This document shows positions 2,563-23,026 of a stretch of 62,055 nucleotides of DNA, in pieces. The position numbers and the translations under genes were made by a program. The stretch is taken from the IMG/VR virus record IMGVR_UViG_3300045996_000553, positions 1 to 62,055 of that record. The stretch is one strand, 5' to 3'. The notes under the pieces were generated by a model. That model searched no databases. It had not been told where the DNA came from and worked only from the letters and a program-made list of their open reading frames with translations. Position 1 is the stretch's first letter. Each line of letters begins with the position of its first letter. The stretch is from a virus (lineage: Duplodnaviria > Caudoviricetes).

Positions 2563-3171
2563 TTAAAAATCCCATTGAGATGCCATAGCGTTTGCTATGC
2601 CTTGAAAAGTTTGGCTTCTTATTTTCATACGCTGTTCTTTAGGCAACGCCGCAGCTTTCACATACCAAGTAGCCATTCTTTTGCCGCTTTTGAAAGTAGT
2701 GTATTCAGGTTCTACAATTTCAGTAGGCAATAGCGGCGGAAGATTCTTTAACCATAAACAGGTTTTCTTTGCTTCTTCATGTCCAAACTGCCAGGGTTGG
2801 ATGATTTGATTCGGTTTTCGCCACTTGGTAGACATTATTCCTACAGGATTTTCAATACATATTTTTTCTATATTCGATGTTGCAATCGCCATAAAGAGAT
2901 TTATCGCATTTTCTCTGTCTTGTTCTCTTGTAGGGAAGCGGTCCTTGTATTCAGGTTTAAACCATTTGTTTCCCGTTACAGTCAAATACGTGCAAGGCGG
3001 GTGAGCAATCATCAAATCCCATTCTTCATCCAGTATATCAAGCACGTCTCCTAAAATATGCGGTCCTTCCCGTTCCGTAGGCAATAAATCACAACTGAAG
3101 GCTTCATGTCCTTTTGCTATAAACGCATCCCGAACTATTCCGCTAAACTCACACGCGACTAAGACTTTCAT
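2563..3171 (-). CDS. Phage-type C5 cytosine DNA methyltransferase-like protein
   Basis: VLVACEFSG, AHPPCTYL (PC motif), IENPVG, FGH..KKTCLW, RSQTFQGIA. Confidence 0.8.
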   Translation of the reverse strand: MKVLVACEFSGIVRDAFIAKGHEAFSCDLLPTEREGPHILGDVLDILDEEWDLMIAHPPCTYLTVTGNKWFKPEYKDRFPTREQDRENAINLFMAIATSNIEKICIENPVGIMSTKWRKPNQIIQPWQFGHEEAKKTCLWLKNLPPLLPTEIVEPEYTTFKSGKRMATWYVKAAALPKEQRMKIRSQTFQGIANAMASQWDF

Positions 3172-4242: not shown

Positions 4243-4834
4243 AAATTTGGTTTTTCAACTGCGTTCCTCTGGCTCCGTCGATACCCAACGCTTTAGCCAT
4301 TTCGTAAGGACCGTTGCCTTGCATAAGCAGATAGATAACCTTCGCTTTACGCTCCGGTTTCATGCGGCCTTGCCCCATAACCTTTTCTATAGCGGCTTCC
4401 ACGTCCATTTTCAGACGTTGATGAGGCGAGAAATCTTCCGATACGCCTTTCAACAAAACCCAAAATTCGCTTACGCCTTCGTTGTCATTGTTGTAAACGT
4501 AATCGGTAGATAAACATATCTTAGGATCGTTGTCTCTAGGCGTATGAATGACCGAGTTGTTCCACCTGAGATAGTCTTCCGCGTGACGGTATTTGAAAAC
4601 TGCGTTGTAGAAATAAGTTTTGAACTTTACGCCTTGTTTCGGGCGAAAGTTCAGTATGGCTCTCCAAAACGCTTCGTTCAAGTGAGACAGCAACTCTTCA
4701 CGGTTGAATACGGTTCCGAAACCAAGAAACTGTTGCGCCGAACAATAAATCAGTCCTCGGTATCTTCGGTAGAGCACTTCTCCCGCTTCCGCGTGTTTCT
4801 TGGCGAGTTTGCAGAGTTGTTCATCCGTAAGCAT
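4205..4834 (-). CDS. Phage RNA polymerase sigma-70-family factor
   Basis: Region 2 signature LYRRYRGLI..EELL..AFWRAILNFRPKQGVKFKTY; C-terminal HTH-like EMAKALGI. Confidence 0.8.
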   Translation of the reverse strand: MLTDEQLCKLAKKHAEAGEVLYRRYRGLIYCSAQQFLGFGTVFNREELLSHLNEAFWRAILNFRPKQGVKFKTYFYNAVFKYRHAEDYLRWNNSVIHTPRDNDPKICLSTDYVYNNDNEGVSEFWVLLKGVSEDFSPHQRLKMDVEAAIEKVMGQGRMKPERKAKVIYLLMQGNGPYEMAKALGIDGARGTQLKNQIYEELRRELWFYE

Positions 4835-5045
4835 TTATCCTACTCTCGTGTTTTTTCGTGTAGCAGACGTAATCGACGTGCGTTTGAAGCAATTTGCCTC
4901 TGGTTGAAACCAGAATAGCGGTATCGCCTCGAATTTCCTTCAACCGGAAGGTTGCTTTACGTCCAATCCAAGAAACGTGAACGCCGTAGTTCAGAATATT
5001 CGTCAGGTCTTTTTTAGGGACTTTAACCAGAGTATCACTATTCAT
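4821..5045 (-). CDS. Hypothetical protein
   Basis: ATG at 5045 overlaps upstream stop (ATGA). Confidence 0.6.
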   Translation of the reverse strand: MNSDTLVKVPKKDLTNILNYGVHVSWIGRKATFRLKEIRGDTAILVSTRGKLLQTHVDYVCYTKKHESRINAYG

Positions 5046-6284: not shown

Positions 6285-6511
6285 TAGCGTCCGAAATTCC
6301 TTTCCAGTTCAAACTCATCCATGATGTATTCTCCTGTTCGGTTTCTGCTTGCTAGTTCATCTTCGCAATACTCTACGATAAAATCCTCTTCGATGTTGTT
6401 GATACTCCACTCAAGATAAGTATTCGGAACGTCTTCGATACTTTCTCCTTCGTGTTTGCCGTAGGTGAAGACGTAACTTGTCTGTGTGAAAGATAGTTCT
6501 TGTTCAGCCAT
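6281..6511 (-). CDS. DUF3820-like small protein
   Basis: FTYGKHEGESIEDVPNTYLEW motif. Confidence 0.7.
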   Translation of the reverse strand: MAEQELSFTQTSYVFTYGKHEGESIEDVPNTYLEWSINNIEEDFIVEYCEDELASRNRTGEYIMDEFELERNFGRY

Positions 6512-7845
6512 TATGCTTCCCATCCTTTCAGTTCGTTCCAACGTTTCCCGTATTTCGCATCCGATTTTAAAGGAACAGCAAACCGAACAACCTTCTCCAA
6601 AGCCATATGAGATAAGATTTTCGGTATCCAGAAATCTAAAGCGTTATCATTTATTTCGAAAATTACGCTATCATGCACAGCAAGGTGCATAGTCGGTGCT
6701 TCCGGTCCATACGCCTGAAACTCCGCGTCCATATTCGTAATCGCTATACGAAGGACTTCATTCGCTCCTCCCTGGATTACAGGGTTCGGCGCAGCATACG
6801 CCTTGTTGTAAAGCCTCCCGTCTTTCAGAAGAATATCAGGAAAACGGCGAACCCTTCCCGTCCACATCTTCACGTAGCGATTTCGCTGTGCGAATGATAC
6901 GGTTTTGTCGATCCATGCTTTGATAGCGGGAAATCGCTTGTTGTAGTCGTCTAAGATATTTTTGGATGCTCCGAGTTCCGTCCAAAACAGTTTCCCTTCT
7001 TCGGTAGACCATTCAGGATAGGTTTCATCTTTCTTTCTTCGCATATTCTTTGCAAGGTAAAATCCTGTTTCTTCCGCATTTTCACACGTAAAAATATCCA
7101 TCGTTTGCAGTAAGTCTATTAGTTTCACGCCTTCCAGTCGCAGCGAGTTCACAAGTCCTTGAGGACCGGCTCCATAAATGGCTGTAAAGTTTACGCGCTT
7201 TGCAACTTGTCTCGGTATGTTAAGCAGTTCAGCCGTTTGCGTGTGAACGTCGATGCCATTGTTGTAAGCGTAAATCAGATTCGGGTCCTGCGACATATGA
7301 GCAAGAATACGAAGTTCGATCTGACTTTCATCACAGTCCACAAGCGTTTTACCGGGAGGAGATACAATGGCTCCCCGCACGTTGTAGATTTCGCTCTCCC
7401 TCGGCAGAGTTTGCAAGGCAGGACGCTTGATCGAAGCCCTACCTGCCGCCGTCAGCAAGGCGAAATCAGGATGAAGGCGATTGTTCTCATCCAAACATTC
7501 GAGGAACGGGATGAAATAAGTGTCTCTCGCTCTCCCCCATTTTCGGTAGTCGTTCAATAGCATGGCTATCGGGTGTTCGCTATCTTCCAAAGCCTGCCTT
7601 GCCGTCGATTTCATTCCTAGGACTTTACCGACCTGTGCAGGAGAGTTCAGATTGAACTCCGTTCCTGCTTGCCGATGGATTTCAAGTTCAAGTTCCGACT
7701 GTTTTTCATTGCAGTTGATAACGGCTTGGTTAACGAAATCCGTGTCGATAAGACAGCCGTTGTCCTCCATTCGACCTACTGCTTCACCATAACGACATAT
7801 ATCAATTGCTAAATCCCAAAGTCCCTGCTGTTCAAGTCCTTTCAC
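6511..7845 (-). CDS. polA: Family A DNA polymerase, polymerase domain (split gene)
   Basis: FNLNSPAQV, GR.S..PALQTLP, motif A CDESQIELRILAH, motif B AKRVNFTAIYG, motif C VHDS. Confidence 0.93.
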   Translation of the reverse strand: MKGLEQQGLWDLAIDICRYGEAVGRMEDNGCLIDTDFVNQAVINCNEKQSELELEIHRQAGTEFNLNSPAQVGKVLGMKSTARQALEDSEHPIAMLLNDYRKWGRARDTYFIPFLECLDENNRLHPDFALLTAAGRASIKRPALQTLPRESEIYNVRGAIVSPPGKTLVDCDESQIELRILAHMSQDPNLIYAYNNGIDVHTQTAELLNIPRQVAKRVNFTAIYGAGPQGLVNSLRLEGVKLIDLLQTMDIFTCENAEETGFYLAKNMRRKKDETYPEWSTEEGKLFWTELGASKNILDDYNKRFPAIKAWIDKTVSFAQRNRYVKMWTGRVRRFPDILLKDGRLYNKAYAAPNPVIQGGANEVLRIAITNMDAEFQAYGPEAPTMHLAVHDSVIFEINDNALDFWIPKILSHMALEKVVRFAVPLKSDAKYGKRWNELKGWEA

Positions 7846-8765
7846 TATTTACTCCCGTATCTGAGCAATTCATACAATTTATAAGTCAAAACAGCGTCTT
7901 GCTTTGCATACAAAGCAACGATTTCCAAGTCCAACTTCGCCAGTATCGACATAGGTTCAACTTTCTTTATGGCTGAAATCGCAATCATCGCCTTATTTCT
8001 CGCTTCGTAAAACGTGAGGAAATCGAGCAGCCCTGCCGAATGATCTTTCAGCTTTCGCTTGTTTATGTCAGCTATCTTCCCTCGCAACGTCGCTATGGTT
8101 TCTCCCATCTTTTCCAAATCAACAGATTCGTCCAGTTCTTCTCCTTTCTCTCGTTTCTTTTCCAGTCGATTGTATTGCAGCGTTAAAGGTTTCAGGGCTT
8201 CTTTGTAAACAGCTTTCTGTTCGGCTCTCCACGATTGTTCCATATGGCGAAGTTCGATTTCAGCAGCATCCCGTATCATTATTTGAGCGTTTAAACTCTC
8301 CGCAAGGTATTCGTTTGCAGCTTGTTTCAACGCCGTCTGTTCCGCCGTTTCGTCTATGCCGAAGTATTTTGCAGCCATAGGCTTCAGTCCGAAGGAAGGT
8401 TCGTTTTCTTCGTTCAGATGGGCCAGGAGCATACCGTCTACAATAAAAGCGTTTACCTCCACTCCTTCGTGCTTTAAAAACTTCGTATCGAACTTCCCGT
8501 TCCACGTAATGAGCCAGTTATCCTGATTTCCGAAGTATTCACGGACTTGATCGTGAAAGAGTTCAGGAGAGAGTTGGTAGTTGATTTCGTGACGTATCGG
8601 GATATAGTAGGACTGCTCGTTGCTTGGCAGAAAAAAGGAGTGTCCGATGATCTTATCCCCATTGAAAGGACGTAAACCCGTCGTTTCCAAATCAAAAGCG
8701 ACAGACTGATTGGAATACAGTTCTTCAATAAATGGTTTCAGTTGTTCTTCGTTTTGGATAATCAT
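7845..8765 (-). CDS. Family A DNA polymerase, 3'-5' exonuclease domain (split gene)
   Basis: ExoI FDLETTGL, ExoII WNGKFD, ExoIII YAKQDA. Confidence 0.9.
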   Translation of the reverse strand: MIIQNEEQLKPFIEELYSNQSVAFDLETTGLRPFNGDKIIGHSFFLPSNEQSYYIPIRHEINYQLSPELFHDQVREYFGNQDNWLITWNGKFDTKFLKHEGVEVNAFIVDGMLLAHLNEENEPSFGLKPMAAKYFGIDETAEQTALKQAANEYLAESLNAQIMIRDAAEIELRHMEQSWRAEQKAVYKEALKPLTLQYNRLEKKREKGEELDESVDLEKMGETIATLRGKIADINKRKLKDHSAGLLDFLTFYEARNKAMIAISAIKKVEPMSILAKLDLEIVALYAKQDAVLTYKLYELLRYGSK

Positions 8766-19454: not shown

Positions 19455-19658
19455 CTAACGAACAAAACTGTGATGATGAGCCATTATCGCATCCTCTAAA
19501 ATCTGAATTCCACGCGGAGATTGCAATTCTACGCAAAGATTACAACCTTTCTCCCTACACGGACGGCAACCTTCTTGATACGGGATTGTGCAGTCACAAA
19601 GATGCGTAAAACCCTCTTGTTTTAGTTGAATCAGCATTGCTTTTGCTTTCTTTGTCAT
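19455..19658 (-). CDS. Cys-rich hypothetical protein
   Basis: GAAAGGA RBS; six Cys. Confidence 0.65.
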   Translation of the reverse strand: MTKKAKAMLIQLKQEGFTHLCDCTIPYQEGCRPCREKGCNLCVELQSPRGIQILEDAIMAHHHSFVR

Positions 19659-19708
19659 TGCTGTATCCTTTCATATTCCAATGTTGCGTTTGTTTACTGT
19701 GTAGCAAT

Positions 19709-19752
19709 CAGGCGCAATGGTTTGAACCTATCCCTTGGAAGCGATGCGCCTG
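19709..19752 (-). ncRNA. Putative structured RNA with T-loop-like hairpin
   Basis: CAGGCGCA/UGCGCCUG stem enclosing GGUUCAAACC. Confidence 0.45.
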
Positions 19753-19763
19753 TGATTTTTACG

Positions 19764-20222
19764 TTAGATCAAAACTTCTTCATATTCCCGATTCTCTATC
19801 TCGGTTTCAATGTAACCTTCCGCTAGTTCCGTATAATTTACGCCTCTCTTTCCGATCCAATTTCTCATTCGACTAGCTAAAACTTTGACAGCTTTCTCTT
19901 TGCTTTCCGATAACGTGTAAATCTGTTTGGCTTGTTTTGTCCAATAGTTGTAAGAATCCTGGTCATTGTCCATTTCTAAACCAACCTGCCACGTTTTGTA
20001 ATTTGTGTATCCCTGGTAGCTTTCTTCCGCTTTCTCCTCTTCATAACCGTCAAACCATTGTCCGTAACGTTTCGTTCGGTTTGTTTCCGTTTTGCCTGTT
20101 GCAGTTGTGGAACTCGTTTCGGGATTCTGGCAATGGGCTTGCGCTTCCTCTAGTGTTAAGCCTTTCTTGATTGTTCGGTTTGCGGAATTTTGGAAATGTC
20201 GAATGATTCGATAGGTCGCCAT
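19764..20222 (-). CDS. Two-domain conserved phage hypothetical protein
   Basis: GLTLEEAQAHC.NPETSS..WFDGY fused to YQGYTNYKTWQV. Confidence 0.8.
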   Translation of the reverse strand: MATYRIIRHFQNSANRTIKKGLTLEEAQAHCQNPETSSTTATGKTETNRTKRYGQWFDGYEEEKAEESYQGYTNYKTWQVGLEMDNDQDSYNYWTKQAKQIYTLSESKEKAVKVLASRMRNWIGKRGVNYTELAEGYIETEIENREYEEVLI

Positions 20223-20227
20223 TTTGA

Positions 20228-20434
20228 TTACTCCTTCTCATCTATCGGGGAATGATAAATTCCGCTTCGTGTTTTAGGTTCCAGTTTTAAAACATCTTCC
20301 GCAAACAGGAAAGAAGATGTTAAATACTTCTTCCCTAATCGCTTTTCTTTACTCCAGACCGCTTTATCGTTTTTCCATCCGACAAAATATGCTTCTGTGG
20401 ACATTTTGCGAATGTGTCCGACTTCGTAAGACAT
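20228..20434 (-). CDS. Hypothetical protein
   Basis: GGAG RBS; resembles 23027..23230 (Y..G..W). Confidence 0.7.
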   Translation of the reverse strand: MSYEVGHIRKMSTEAYFVGWKNDKAVWSKEKRLGKKYLTSSFLFAEDVLKLEPKTRSGIYHSPIDEKE

Positions 20435-20438
20435 TTTG

Positions 20439-20633
20439 TTACTCTCCCTTTCTCATAATTGCCGCCATTCGATTAAACTTCTCGGTATTGTTTTCTTTCC
20501 AGACGCTAGCGGCTTGTCTCGCTTCGTTCCTGCTAGATGACAATGGCTTTTCGTTTCGTCTTGTTTCTTCCGTGTCAATAGTTTGTAAAGCCATAAAGGG
20601 AATTCTTGTTTTCTCGTTTAACATACTTTTCAT
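20439..20633 (-). CDS. Hypothetical protein
   Basis: ATG at 20633, 10 nt after the GAAAGG of RNA motif copy 2. Confidence 0.7.
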   Translation of the reverse strand: MKSMLNEKTRIPFMALQTIDTEETRRNEKPLSSSRNEARQAASVWKENNTEKFNRMAAIMRKGE

Positions 20634-20643
20634 CGGTTTGTTT

Positions 20644-20712
20644 CCTTTCCCCTTATCAGAAGGGTAGGAAGCCATTAAAGACTTCCCCCGCACGATTTAC
20701 GCCGAAAGGTTA
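20644..20712 (-). ncRNA. Four-way-junction cis-RNA motif, copy 2
   Basis: CCUUUC/GAAAGG closing stem plus three hairpins; covaries with copy 1. Confidence 0.75.
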
Positions 20713-21123
20713 AAGCAGGTTTCCTTCGGAATCCGTCAGACACTCGTCTAATGGTTGCACCGGATACATAATCGAGCCGATATTCCTGTATTGCGTCTGA
20801 TAATGTTTGTTGCGAAATTCTTCTTCATTCTGGTAGGTTGTGTATGCCGTTTTCACAATGGCGTTTGGGTTTAACTGGTAGAGATTGGAAAAGAATTTTG
20901 CGAATCCATACCAGTTAATCGCGTTCTTTTTCCTGCCGCTCATTCCCGATTGTGAAAGCCATTTCTTTTCTTGCGGATTCGGGGAAAGTTTCACGTTAAA
21001 TCTGTCGCCTTTGGCATTTAACGGCTTGAAATTGTCCAACCGAATTCCGCCTGTGAGGATAGCTGCTTGCTCTATCTGTTCCTTTGTGACGTTTGCAATA
21101 ACCATTGGAATAGTTCCTTTCAC
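20710..21123 (-). CDS. Hypothetical protein
   Basis: Operon ORF directly downstream of the hammerhead; start may be the internal ATG (MVIAN). Confidence 0.75.
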   Translation of the reverse strand: MKGTIPMVIANVTKEQIEQAAILTGGIRLDNFKPLNAKGDRFNVKLSPNPQEKKWLSQSGMSGRKKNAINWYGFAKFFSNLYQLNPNAIVKTAYTTYQNEEEFRNKHYQTQYRNIGSIMYPVQPLDECLTDSEGNLL

Positions 21124-21125
21124 GT

Positions 21126-21194
21126 TCGGATTAGACTCATTCAGCTAGGGATTCATCCGATTTACCCTAAGACCCCTAGAAAGGGGTTTCGTCT
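21126..21194 (-). ncRNA. Type II hammerhead ribozyme with pseudoknot
   Basis: AGAC-GAAA-CCCC(UUUCUA)GGGG-UC-UUAGGG(loop)CCCUAG-CUGAAUGA-GUCU; loop I UCGGAU pairs with 3' AUCCGA. Confidence 0.88.
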
Positions 21195-21452
21195 TTAATC
21201 TTCGTAAAGTAGGCAATCTTCTTCCTGGCAAGGGCAAGTTTCAACGGTTCGCATTGCATAGCTATCACGCGCTACTGCTTCATAGTCGCCATTAGAGCCG
21301 GATACTTTGAAACCCTGTTCCTTGTAATCCTCTTTCGCGCTGATTGCATAACTTACAGCGTCTTTTCGGTTTGTGAATACTTGGTTATCATCCGGCATAC
21401 AACCGGGAATTCCTACCAGAACGTGATAATGTTGAAACTGCTTGGTTGCCAT
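21195..21452 (-). CDS. Hypothetical protein
   Basis: GAAAGG RBS; PGCMPD motif. Confidence 0.75.
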   Translation of the reverse strand: MATKQFQHYHVLVGIPGCMPDDNQVFTNRKDAVSYAISAKEDYKEQGFKVSGSNGDYEAVARDSYAMRTVETCPCQEEDCLLYED

Positions 21453-21474
21453 AATGGTTGCCTTTCGTGGAATG

Positions 21475-21519
21475 TAGCAAGCAAGACTGTTTTTGAGAAT
21501 TGTCGGGTCTTGCTTGCTA
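21475..21519. repeat. Perfect 13-bp intergenic inverted repeat
   Basis: tagcaagcaagac / gtcttgcttgcta. Confidence 0.85.
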
Positions 21520-21532
21520 GGGTTGGTTGTTG

Positions 21533-21829
21533 TTAGATCATTCTTCCGTATTCATCCCGAAGGATGTTAGCGTTGTGTGAACCATAACGCGCCGCTTTTG
21601 ACTTCGTGATATTCCAATATTTGATAAGATTGGTTCCGTCTTGAAGAACAATACCGGGAATATCTTCCTCTAGCGTATTCGGGTAATCTTCGGGAAAGTC
21701 TCTAACTTCCTGCCATTCTTTTACCGCTTCTTTGTAATACTGTAGGGCTTTCTTTTCCTCTCCAAATTTCACGATAGAGGATTGGTAATACTTTCCGTTT
21801 TCTCTGTCGATAAACCTAACGTAATACAT
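21533..21829 (-). CDS. Hypothetical protein
   Basis: GAAAGGA RBS, upstream promoter. Confidence 0.75.
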   Translation of the reverse strand: MYYVRFIDRENGKYYQSSIVKFGEEKKALQYYKEAVKEWQEVRDFPEDYPNTLEEDIPGIVLQDGTNLIKYWNITKSKAARYGSHNANILRDEYGRMI

Positions 21830-21868
21830 TTCATCTTCCTTTCGTCTGTCGTTCGCCTTAACAACACC

Positions 21869-21897
21869 ATTTTAGCAGGATGAAATAAAGATGGGAA
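21869..21897 (-). promoter_or_regulatory. sigma70-type promoter
   Basis: TTCCCA-17 nt-TAAAAT with extended TG. Confidence 0.55.
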
Positions 21898-22364
21898 CTA
21901 TCATTTCTGATAGTGTTTTCTCGTCTTTAAATCGTCTGTCTTGACGCTTGCTCATAAGCAATCTTGTTTATTGTCTGTCCTTGCCTATGGAACGTCCTGT
22001 AGTAAAGGTGTGAACAGACGTTCATACTCGTTAAAGCCATTAGACGGTGTTAGGCGTGGATTTATACCTATACGCTTGTATCTTGGTAAACGTCCTATGC
22101 TTTCCTCCTTCGTAAACAATAGGTTATAAGCGAAAAACGGGTCTAAATCAGTATGCTAGGTTAGTAAAACCATTTGATAAGCAATAAAGCGTTGCATAAT
22201 AAAGAATGAGTATCGTTAAGCGTATCGTTAGAGGAAAAATGAGGGTATCGTTAGGCGTGGATTAGGCGTGAGCGGTCGCTTCTTGGCAATAGACCCAACC
22301 ATTGGGAAGAGTAAGGGACCGTCTCGCTTGGTAGTAGCATAGGAGTTCAACCCTAACCCAGATC

Positions 22365-22421
22365 GGGGATAGATATATATTATTCTATCCCCGTAGGGGA
22401 TATAATATATATCTATTCCCC
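22365..22421. repeat. AT-rich nested imperfect palindrome
   Basis: ggggatagatatatattattctatcccc-gta-ggggatataatatatatctattcccc. Confidence 0.8.
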
Positions 22422-22442
22422 TGGGAAGGGTCCGGGAATTTT

Positions 22443-22643
22443 TTATGCTCGGTTGCTTTCCCGAATTTCGTATCTCGAAAAAGTTTTGAGAATTCGCGAT
22501 TGGTTTTCGAGGTGATCTTGGAGTTTTTCCACCGAGGAAAAAGTTTGGGTTCGGGTTCCGAATTCCCCGATTGCATAAAAGCCGGAAAAAACCCGATAGA
22601 CGGTAAAAGATTCGTTTTGAGTTCGGATTACTGCTATTGGCAT
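22443..22643 (-). CDS. Hypothetical protein
   Basis: AAGGAG RBS. Confidence 0.65.
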   Translation of the reverse strand: MPIAVIRTQNESFTVYRVFSGFYAIGEFGTRTQTFSSVEKLQDHLENQSRILKTFSRYEIRESNRA

Positions 22644-23026
22644 CTCATTCTCCTTTTTGGAATAGGGCTATTTGACCTGAGAATCGTTTCTGTGACGTTT
22701 TAATGGTTTGGGCGGGTGATTTACCGTAGGCCGGAAAAATTTTGTCTCTCCGCCCATTCTTGCGGGAATTCAGGGGAGTTTCGGTTGGAACGAATCGAGT
22801 TCCCCTGCAAAATCTCTTAAGCGAGCAAATAACTCTAAGTCTCTTGCGCTCATTCCGGCCCATAATTTTGTTGCGAGAGGAAACATTTCATAAATCTTTT
22901 CTTGCAAGGGAGTGAACTTCATTTTAGGAATAGCCTTTCTTGCCCCTACGTTGACCGTAGGGGCGATAGAATATGGTTTGGGTGTGATTTGACGTGGAAG
23001 GTTGAAATTTTGCGTGTGTGGCGATT

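Follow-up and report, generated by a model that had tools for sequence, protein, structure and literature searches.

Genomic setting of the candidate ribozyme

The sequence analysed here, hereafter the window, spans an entire IMG/VR virus record (62,055 bp, linear; CheckV completeness 64%), which derives from a tailed dsDNA phage represented only by uncultivated sequence. Its genes are arranged in a leftward block, encoding a primase/helicase, a DNA polymerase in two ORFs, an exonuclease and a helicase, and a rightward block, encoding portal, tape-measure and tail proteins. The two polymerase ORFs are adjacent (6511-8765, minus strand), the stop of the first overlapping the start of the second at position 7845; relative to phrog_17, the 306-aa product corresponds to the exonuclease/N-terminal part and the 444-aa product to the polymerase part.

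The site of interest lies within the leftward block, amid tightly packed small ORFs without assigned function. The upstream cistron is an 85-aa ORF (21195-21452, minus strand) with no Pfam match and, in the PHROG search, only a weak match to phrog_18564 (function unassigned). The downstream cistron (20710-21123, minus strand) can be read as 137 aa from a GTG at 21123 or as 131 aa from an ATG at 21105. Searches of Pfam and PHROGs assigned no function to the small proteins flanking the site, and matched a 152-aa neighbouring ORF to DUF7249 and phrog_871. The spacer between the 85-aa and 137-aa cistrons measures 69 nt and harbours, on the minus (coding) strand, a hammerhead motif whose 5' end abuts the TAA stop codon (21197-21195) of the 85-aa ORF. 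A Shine-Dalgarno-like AAAGGA (21115-21120) begins 13 nt after stem II of the motif. As it sits 9 nt before the ATG at 21105, we regard this codon as the more likely start of the downstream gene, in preference to the GTG at 21123.

Anatomy of the hammerhead

A sequence-only reading of the window had described a pseudoknotted type II hammerhead ribozyme with a variant core in this spacer. Direct reading of the minus strand from 21194 to 21126 recovered all of the elements then listed, with the same stems I, II and III, GAAA, cleavage triplet, order and coordinates. The 5' strand of stem II is followed by GAAA, the stem III hairpin, the cleavage site, the stem I hairpin, the core strand and the 3' strand of stem II, so that stem II is the open stem. 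The 5' strand of stem II, AGAC (positions 11.x; 21191-21194), pairs with GUCU (positions 10.x; 21133-21136) according to both the reading and a type II descriptor (described below); GAC occupies model positions 1-3 in two covariance models, R1 and R2 (also described below), and the alignments to both models contain the GUCU strand as well. Next comes the core GAA, namely G12, A13 and A14 (21188-21190), found by reading and in both model alignments. The stem III hairpin (21172-21187) comprises 6 bp, A-CCCC-U/A-GGGG-U, formed between 21187-21182 and 21177-21172 around a UUCU loop, and includes the A15.1-U16.1 pair. It was recovered by reading, by the descriptor and in the minimum free energy (MFE) fold, as was the stem I hairpin (21145-21170), which pairs UUAGGG (21170-21165) with CCCUAG (21150-21145) in 6 bp, one of them U-G, and encloses a 14-nt loop I. 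Between the two hairpins, C17 falls at 21171. The scissile phosphate is thereby predicted, from hammerhead numbering on both model alignments, to lie between 21171 and 21170, in agreement with the position proposed earlier, and the positions of the ORFs confirm that a cut at this point would part the two cistrons.

Loop I contains the hexamer UCGGAU (21155-21160), whose exact complement AUCCGA (21126-21131) follows stem II after a single spacer A. The resulting six Watson-Crick pairs exceed the minimum of 4 bp by which the type II pseudoknot, formed by loop I and the bases immediately 3' of stem II, is recognized. Both strands were identified by reading and are supported by covariation and by a shuffle test, so that the pseudoknot between loop I and the 3' flank claimed in the sequence-only reading holds.

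Other features of the type II core are likewise in place: the GAA, the A15.1-U16.1 pair (A21187-U21172), the G10.1-C11.1 pair (C21191-G21136) and a C at position 17 (H17, not G). The departure from the consensus is in the core strand, CUGAAUGA (21137-21144), which is 8 nt long and reads C3 U4 G5 A6, an extra A, U7 G8 A9. All seven letters of the strict core C3 U4 G5 A6 N7 G8 A9 are thus present, with one A in excess, and in the alignments to both covariance models the one inserted base falls after A6. The core is therefore one nucleotide longer than canonical CUGANGA, as had been noted from the sequence; the extra A is either 21140 or 21141, two positions that are indistinguishable.

A terminator on the plus strand (21170-21199) was considered as a separate candidate feature and rejected: it consists of the mirror image of stem III plus the complement of the GAAAC/AAAGAC stretch, and it lies opposite to all nearby genes.

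Chance resemblance and folding

The type II descriptor requires all three stems to be at least 4 bp long, together with GAAA, UH and CUGA-N(1-2)-GA. Across both strands of the 62-kb genome it has one match, which is this site, and it has none in 300 dinucleotide-preserving shuffles, with either a 7-nt or an 8-nt core. When loop and flank are shuffled, 179 of 20000 trials bring loop I and the 13-nt tail into a 6-bp Watson-Crick match. The MFE fold of 81 nt is a three-way junction identical to that of the hammerhead, and its stability is unexceptional (z = -0.36; 65 of 200 shuffles of the 81 nt fold at least as well). Folding energy by itself is thus uninformative about the hammerhead.

The reading on which the locus merely juxtaposes ordinary hairpins (those of a terminator or of an RNase III site, for example) whose letters coincide with hammerhead motifs is extremely unlikely in our view. 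Its support consists of the unexceptional z-score, the silence of Rfam reported below and a terminator-like hairpin that a pattern scan flagged at 21170-21189 of the plus strand and that mirrors stem III. However, this hairpin is on the non-coding strand of a block in which all genes run the other way, and its coding-strand counterpart is not followed by a U run. Both the descriptor and pseudoknot controls argue against coincidence, as does the fact that each of two covariance models returns this site as its single match (E = 1.9e-6 and 4.4e-8). The hammerhead at 21194-21126 is more than a chance resemblance.

Covariance models and the silence of Rfam

Searching with the Rfam hammerhead models, a check that had been proposed for this element, gave a negative result: there is no match at the gathering score in the whole window, and none at E <= 10 when the search is confined to 321 nt or even to 91 nt. 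In particular, a search of the record with RF02276 (Hammerhead_II) returned no match, and the element stays short of the gathering threshold of this model (37 bits). As a control, we ran the Rfam models on 11 loci with 8 canonical and 5 extra-A hammerheads: only 3 of the 8 canonical ones pass, with scores of 37.5-39 bits against the cut-off of 37, and none of the 5 extra-A ones does. Because five of the eight canonical controls are missed too, we read the Rfam result as reflecting low model sensitivity, not as a refutation, and hence as weak evidence; for phage hammerheads of this population the Rfam model works at the limit of what it can detect.

Models were built from type II hammerheads selected in IMG/VR with a canonical seed pattern (7-nt core plus GAC/GUC stem II), which matches at least 120 stretches; the 150 matches listed include 118 distinct sequences whose stems all reach 4 bp or more on folding. 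Model R1 is based on eight canonical type II hammerheads of equal length from unrelated IMG/VR contigs. Over both strands of the 62 kb, its sole match, at 30.5 bits and E = 1.9e-6, is 21193-21134 on the minus strand; the alignment is full length and contains one inserted base, located after A6. Applied to 100 canonical loci, R1 detects 184 hammerheads, the best 150 of which were used to build model R2. The sole match of R2 in the record is the same site (37.0 bits, E = 4.4e-8), again with the insertion after A6; both models derive from pattern-selected IMG/VR sequences, and these E-values are rough. Under R1, canonical members whose loop I is of comparable length reach 31-44 bits, and the score of the window is low yet within the range of the family. 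That two models built from canonical sequences alone converge on this site and on no other in the record supports the type II assignment.

The descriptor, R1 and R2 agree that the phage carries one hammerhead only. Some other phage contigs hold arrays of type II hammerheads within approximately 10 kb, for example L125 and L127 (about 10 R1 hits each), L070, L096 and L103.

The extra core adenosine and its recurrence

Hammerheads of type II abound in bacteria and prophages, and hammerheads flanking prophage genes have been described (Perreault et al. 2011, PMC3088659). According to that paper, an insertion after A6, termed A6a, is among the rare natural core variants and has low but detectable activity, which is explained by a disturbed contact of the A6-N7 phosphate with U4. 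In the window, both covariance-model alignments show one base directly after A6 and the remaining core at consensus. The variant core that the sequence-only reading had singled out is thus genuinely present; its novelty does not stand, as CUGAAUGA is an already known core rather than a new one, the identity of the published A6a base as A following from its name in the same source. Since the strict 7-nt core and the Rfam threshold are both missed, the element is best filed, judging from its sequence, as a documented A6a insertion variant of the type II class rather than as a consensus member. A literature search on hammerhead and A6a found Perreault et al. (2011) as the sole relevant paper, and one on the 8-letter core word gave no hammerhead paper among the matches listed.

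How often this insertion occurs was assessed with pattern scans that fix the letters of stem II, so that all extra-A counts below concern members with a GAC/GUC stem II. An IMG/VR pattern with two free core positions (NN) matches 34 stretches, seven of which have AU there. Six of these seven (5 distinct sequences) adopt the type II hammerhead fold, with R1 scores of 29-44 bits, while none of the other 27 folds, the best of them scoring 17.2 bits. With AU fixed, the pattern matches 11 stretches in genome contigs and 38 in metagenome contigs, which provide 11 more distinct examples at R1 E < 0.01. Under this threshold, the total is 16 further distinct extra-A sequences besides the window. When the descriptor is applied to all 57 extra-A matches, 24 fold, corresponding to 18 distinct sequences including the window; three of the positives (L155, L190 and L191) are weak or absent under one or both covariance models.

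The extra A is rare relative to the canonical core. Within the same IMG/VR pattern class there are 5 distinct extra-A sequences against at least 118 distinct canonical ones, and none of the 150 best covariance-model hits from canonical loci carries it. The cores of these 150 hits are CUGAUGA (93), CUGACGA (34), CUGAGGA (9), CUGAAGA (9) and of CCGA type (4, that is, with C at core position 4), while in one further row the core is gapped; PMC3088659 mentions a viroid variant with U4C. Only one of the 150 rows has letters in both insert columns, a hammerhead at L095:3930-3984 (plus strand), which combines an extra A on either side of stem II (before GAAA and after the core) with the U4C core CCGAUGA.

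Rare as it is, the insertion is found in at least four structural subclasses that also include canonical members. These are a GGCU-pseudoknot type (L004, beside canonical L094), a UUGGCA type (L005, beside canonical L043), a short-loop type (L018, L183 and others) and the type of the window itself, which comprises the window and L180 along with canonical L089 and L108.

The pseudoknot and its covariation in architecture-matched relatives

The type II consensus includes a pseudoknot that joins loop I to the tail following stem II; most members have it, and its disruption lowers activity by orders of magnitude (Perreault et al., PMC3088659). Among the hammerheads parsed here that have a loop I of at least 8 nt, 64% have a pseudoknot of at least 5 bp, compared with 23% when tails are swapped between sequences.

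Three hammerheads, the nearest structural relatives identified, match the architecture of the window, namely L180, which is located in a metagenome contig and has the extra A like the window, and L089 and L108, which are located in IMG/VR contigs and, unlike the window, have a canonical 7-nt core. All of them share a 6-bp stem I, a loop I laid out as UAAN-pseudoknot-NAUN and a pseudoknot of 5-6 bp placed 0-2 nt after stem II, then an AAAGGA-like sequence; the succession of pseudoknot and AAAGGA is seen in L180 and L089 as in the window. By contrast, the letters of the stems and pseudoknots differ and the flanking genes are unrelated. The loop strand of the pseudoknot reads UCGGAU, CCCGCC or GCGCC among these relatives, each with its own complement in the tail.

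We quantified this pattern in an alignment of five sequences (A4). In this small set, from which the structure itself was derived, pairing is seen in 93.8% of cells, a share that falls to 29-41% once the partners are shifted by 1-3 columns; both sides change in 12 of the 20 pairs, among them 5 of the 6 pseudoknot pairs and 4 of the 6 stem I pairs, and none of 500 shuffles reaches this level of pairing and covariation. Most of the unpaired cells come from one sequence (L175), whose pseudoknot is in a shifted register.

The contig carrying L180 encodes a 213-aa protein (L180:8231-8872, minus strand) with 44% identity to a 202-aa protein of the window (2563-3171, minus strand), and this is the only protein shared by the two at E < 1e-3. 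Since the genes flanking the two ribozymes are unrelated, the sites are not orthologous as judged from these sequences. Nor was an orthologous locus found elsewhere: the 137-aa and 85-aa proteins (P0001 and P0002) have no relatives in IMG/VR, and the three IMG/VR loci related to the 152-aa neighbour share only its N-terminal ~60 residues, with neither synteny nor a hammerhead. In addition, blastn of 19500-23000 against the phage collection gave no match.

In canonical type II hammerheads with a short loop I, the six bases that follow stem II are often CAUCAG, as at many loci including L044, L046, L048, L056, L095, L107 and L129; this is the exact complement of core CUGAUG. These bases could form an alternative, inactive hairpin or make a 3-bp contact with an AUG in loop I.

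Gene context of the family

The position of the window element between a stop codon and a ribosome-binding site fits the context of the family. An ORF stop on the same strand lies no more than 30 nt upstream of 139 of the 198 type II hammerheads parsed from the fetched loci. For 136 of the 198, a Shine-Dalgarno-like motif lies no more than 30 nt downstream, compared with 36 of 198 positions picked at random. The layout of L180 is particularly compact: its stop codon overlaps stem II and is followed by the pseudoknot, AAAGGAG and ATG. At locus L154, a 140-aa homologue of the downstream protein (30% identity) lies directly before a canonical hammerhead (4490-4560), and the next small gene is bounded at its far end by a second hammerhead (4970-5019) and is thus flanked by two (L154:4064-5019). 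For the window itself, a look-up of RNA sequencing runs covering 20700-21500 listed none.

Proposed mechanism and alternative readings

The analysis demonstrates the anatomy of the sequence, its statistical support, its covariance-model membership and the covariation of the pseudoknot, while cleavage, its rate and its consequences for the mRNA are inferred. The most probable reading, in which we place good though not full confidence, is that the spacer encodes a type II hammerhead with an A6a core that self-cleaves and thereby separates two messages. The hammerhead would be transcribed within a long leftward operon of small genes and would then fold, its 6-bp pseudoknot between loop I and the 3' tail holding stems I and II parallel. 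Internal transesterification would then cut the backbone 3' of C21171. The predicted 5' product is the 85-aa cistron, terminated by the stem III hairpin and a 2',3'-cyclic phosphate. Its counterpart, the 3' product, would have U21170 as its first nucleotide, with a 5'-OH enclosed by the stem I/pseudoknot fold, and would bear the AAAGGA ribosome-binding site and the 131/137-aa cistron. In bacterial mRNA decay, ends of both kinds are expected to slow exonucleolytic and 5'-end-dependent degradation. Should cleavage occur as predicted, the stability and translation of the two neighbouring messages would likely become uncoupled.

It has been suggested that hammerheads cut long phage transcripts into single-gene messages (Perreault et al., PMC3088659), and the context of the window fits this suggestion. 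The extra A, however, probably slows cleavage relative to a consensus hammerhead. As A6a is reported to have low activity and is expected to disturb a backbone contact of the core (PMC3088659), cleavage in vivo may be slow or negligible.

Such considerations lead to the main competing explanation, which we consider unlikely: the element would be a crippled relic, derived from a canonical hammerhead and inactivated by the extra A, and would serve at most as a passive hairpin structure between cistrons. This is consistent with the low activity reported for A6a and the predicted disturbance of the contact between the A6-N7 phosphate and U4 (PMC3088659), with the rarity of the insertion (0/150 best hits from canonical loci; 5 distinct sequences against at least 118) and with the presence of a single hammerhead in this phage. 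On the other hand, the other core positions, G10.1-C11.1, A15.1-U16.1, C17, the three stems and the 6-bp pseudoknot are all intact in the window. Furthermore, one-base-longer cores fold only when they contain AU (all six folding examples, against 0/27 for the others), which is unlike random decay. The extra A also recurs in at least four subclasses with canonical members, and both the window and L180 retain it in spite of compensated differences in their stems and pseudoknots.

The specificity and recurrence of AU insertions might instead point to selection. According to a third reading, which appears quite unlikely, the extra A was selected to make cleavage dependent on conditions, such as a divalent ion or a change during infection, and hence to time the separation of the messages. 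Two published observations favour it: an A6C substitution in phage Bcep176 shifts the preference from Mg2+ to Mn2+ (Naghdi et al. 2020, PMC7151607), and Perreault et al. propose that slower phage variants might gain activity under suitable conditions (PMC3088659). Nevertheless, the extra-A variants showed neither a sensor domain nor an additional conserved element next to them, and the rarity of the insertion is also compatible with mere tolerance. It is similarly doubtful, as a broader proposition, that the extra A, instead of being a tolerated defect, has been selected again and again as the mark of a class of phage hammerheads that are slow or depend on conditions, for instance with an altered divalent-ion preference like that of the A6C change. 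Such a class would time message separation and be systematically missed by Rfam. We retain the self-cleaving A6a hammerhead as our working interpretation.

Significance and comparison with known systems

The self-cleaving reading opens no new mechanism. The window provides a further natural hammerhead with an extra core adenosine, in a clear setting of stop codon, ribozyme, ribosome-binding site and start codon. Together with the 16 other examples, it indicates that the A6a oddity of 2011 recurs across several subclasses of phage hammerheads and that, among one-base-longer cores in the class sampled, only the extra-A form occurs in folding examples. The Rfam type II model misses extra-A elements as well as many canonical phage hammerheads, and phage annotations therefore undercount ribozyme-processed operons. 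The value of the element thus lies in annotation and in its use as a test case for core insertions that tune the rate of hammerheads.

Several groups of known hammerheads are pertinent for comparison. Like type II hammerheads in general (PMC3088659; RF02276), the window element has an open stem II and closed stems I and III, the GAAA and CUGA..GA strands, A15.1-U16.1 and C17, along with a loop I/tail pseudoknot of 4 bp or more and an intergenic location between co-oriented phage genes (PMC3088659). Unlike them, it has an extra A in CUGANGA and no RF02276 score, its 14-nt loop I is at the long end of the fetched set, and it is the sole hammerhead of its record, whereas many phage contigs carry several. 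The HHphage and HHmeta hammerheads, from a halovirus and a saltern, respectively (PMC3088659), resemble it in being virus-borne, in having inserted core nucleotides and in being located just upstream of a gene start. Their insertions (2a/2b) are near C3 and stem I, that is, on the other side of the strand, and they differ further in needing very high Mg2+ and in their archaeal halophile context (PMC3088659).

The Bcep176 hammerhead with A6C (PMC3088659; PMC7151607) is similarly located between phage genes, departs from the consensus at or near core position 6 and is weak in Mg2+. However, its change is a substitution instead of an insertion, and a preference for Mn2+ was demonstrated for Bcep176 (PMC7151607). 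Finally, the A6a variant tested by Perreault et al. (PMC3088659) has its insertion directly after A6, as in the window, with a name that implies an inserted A.
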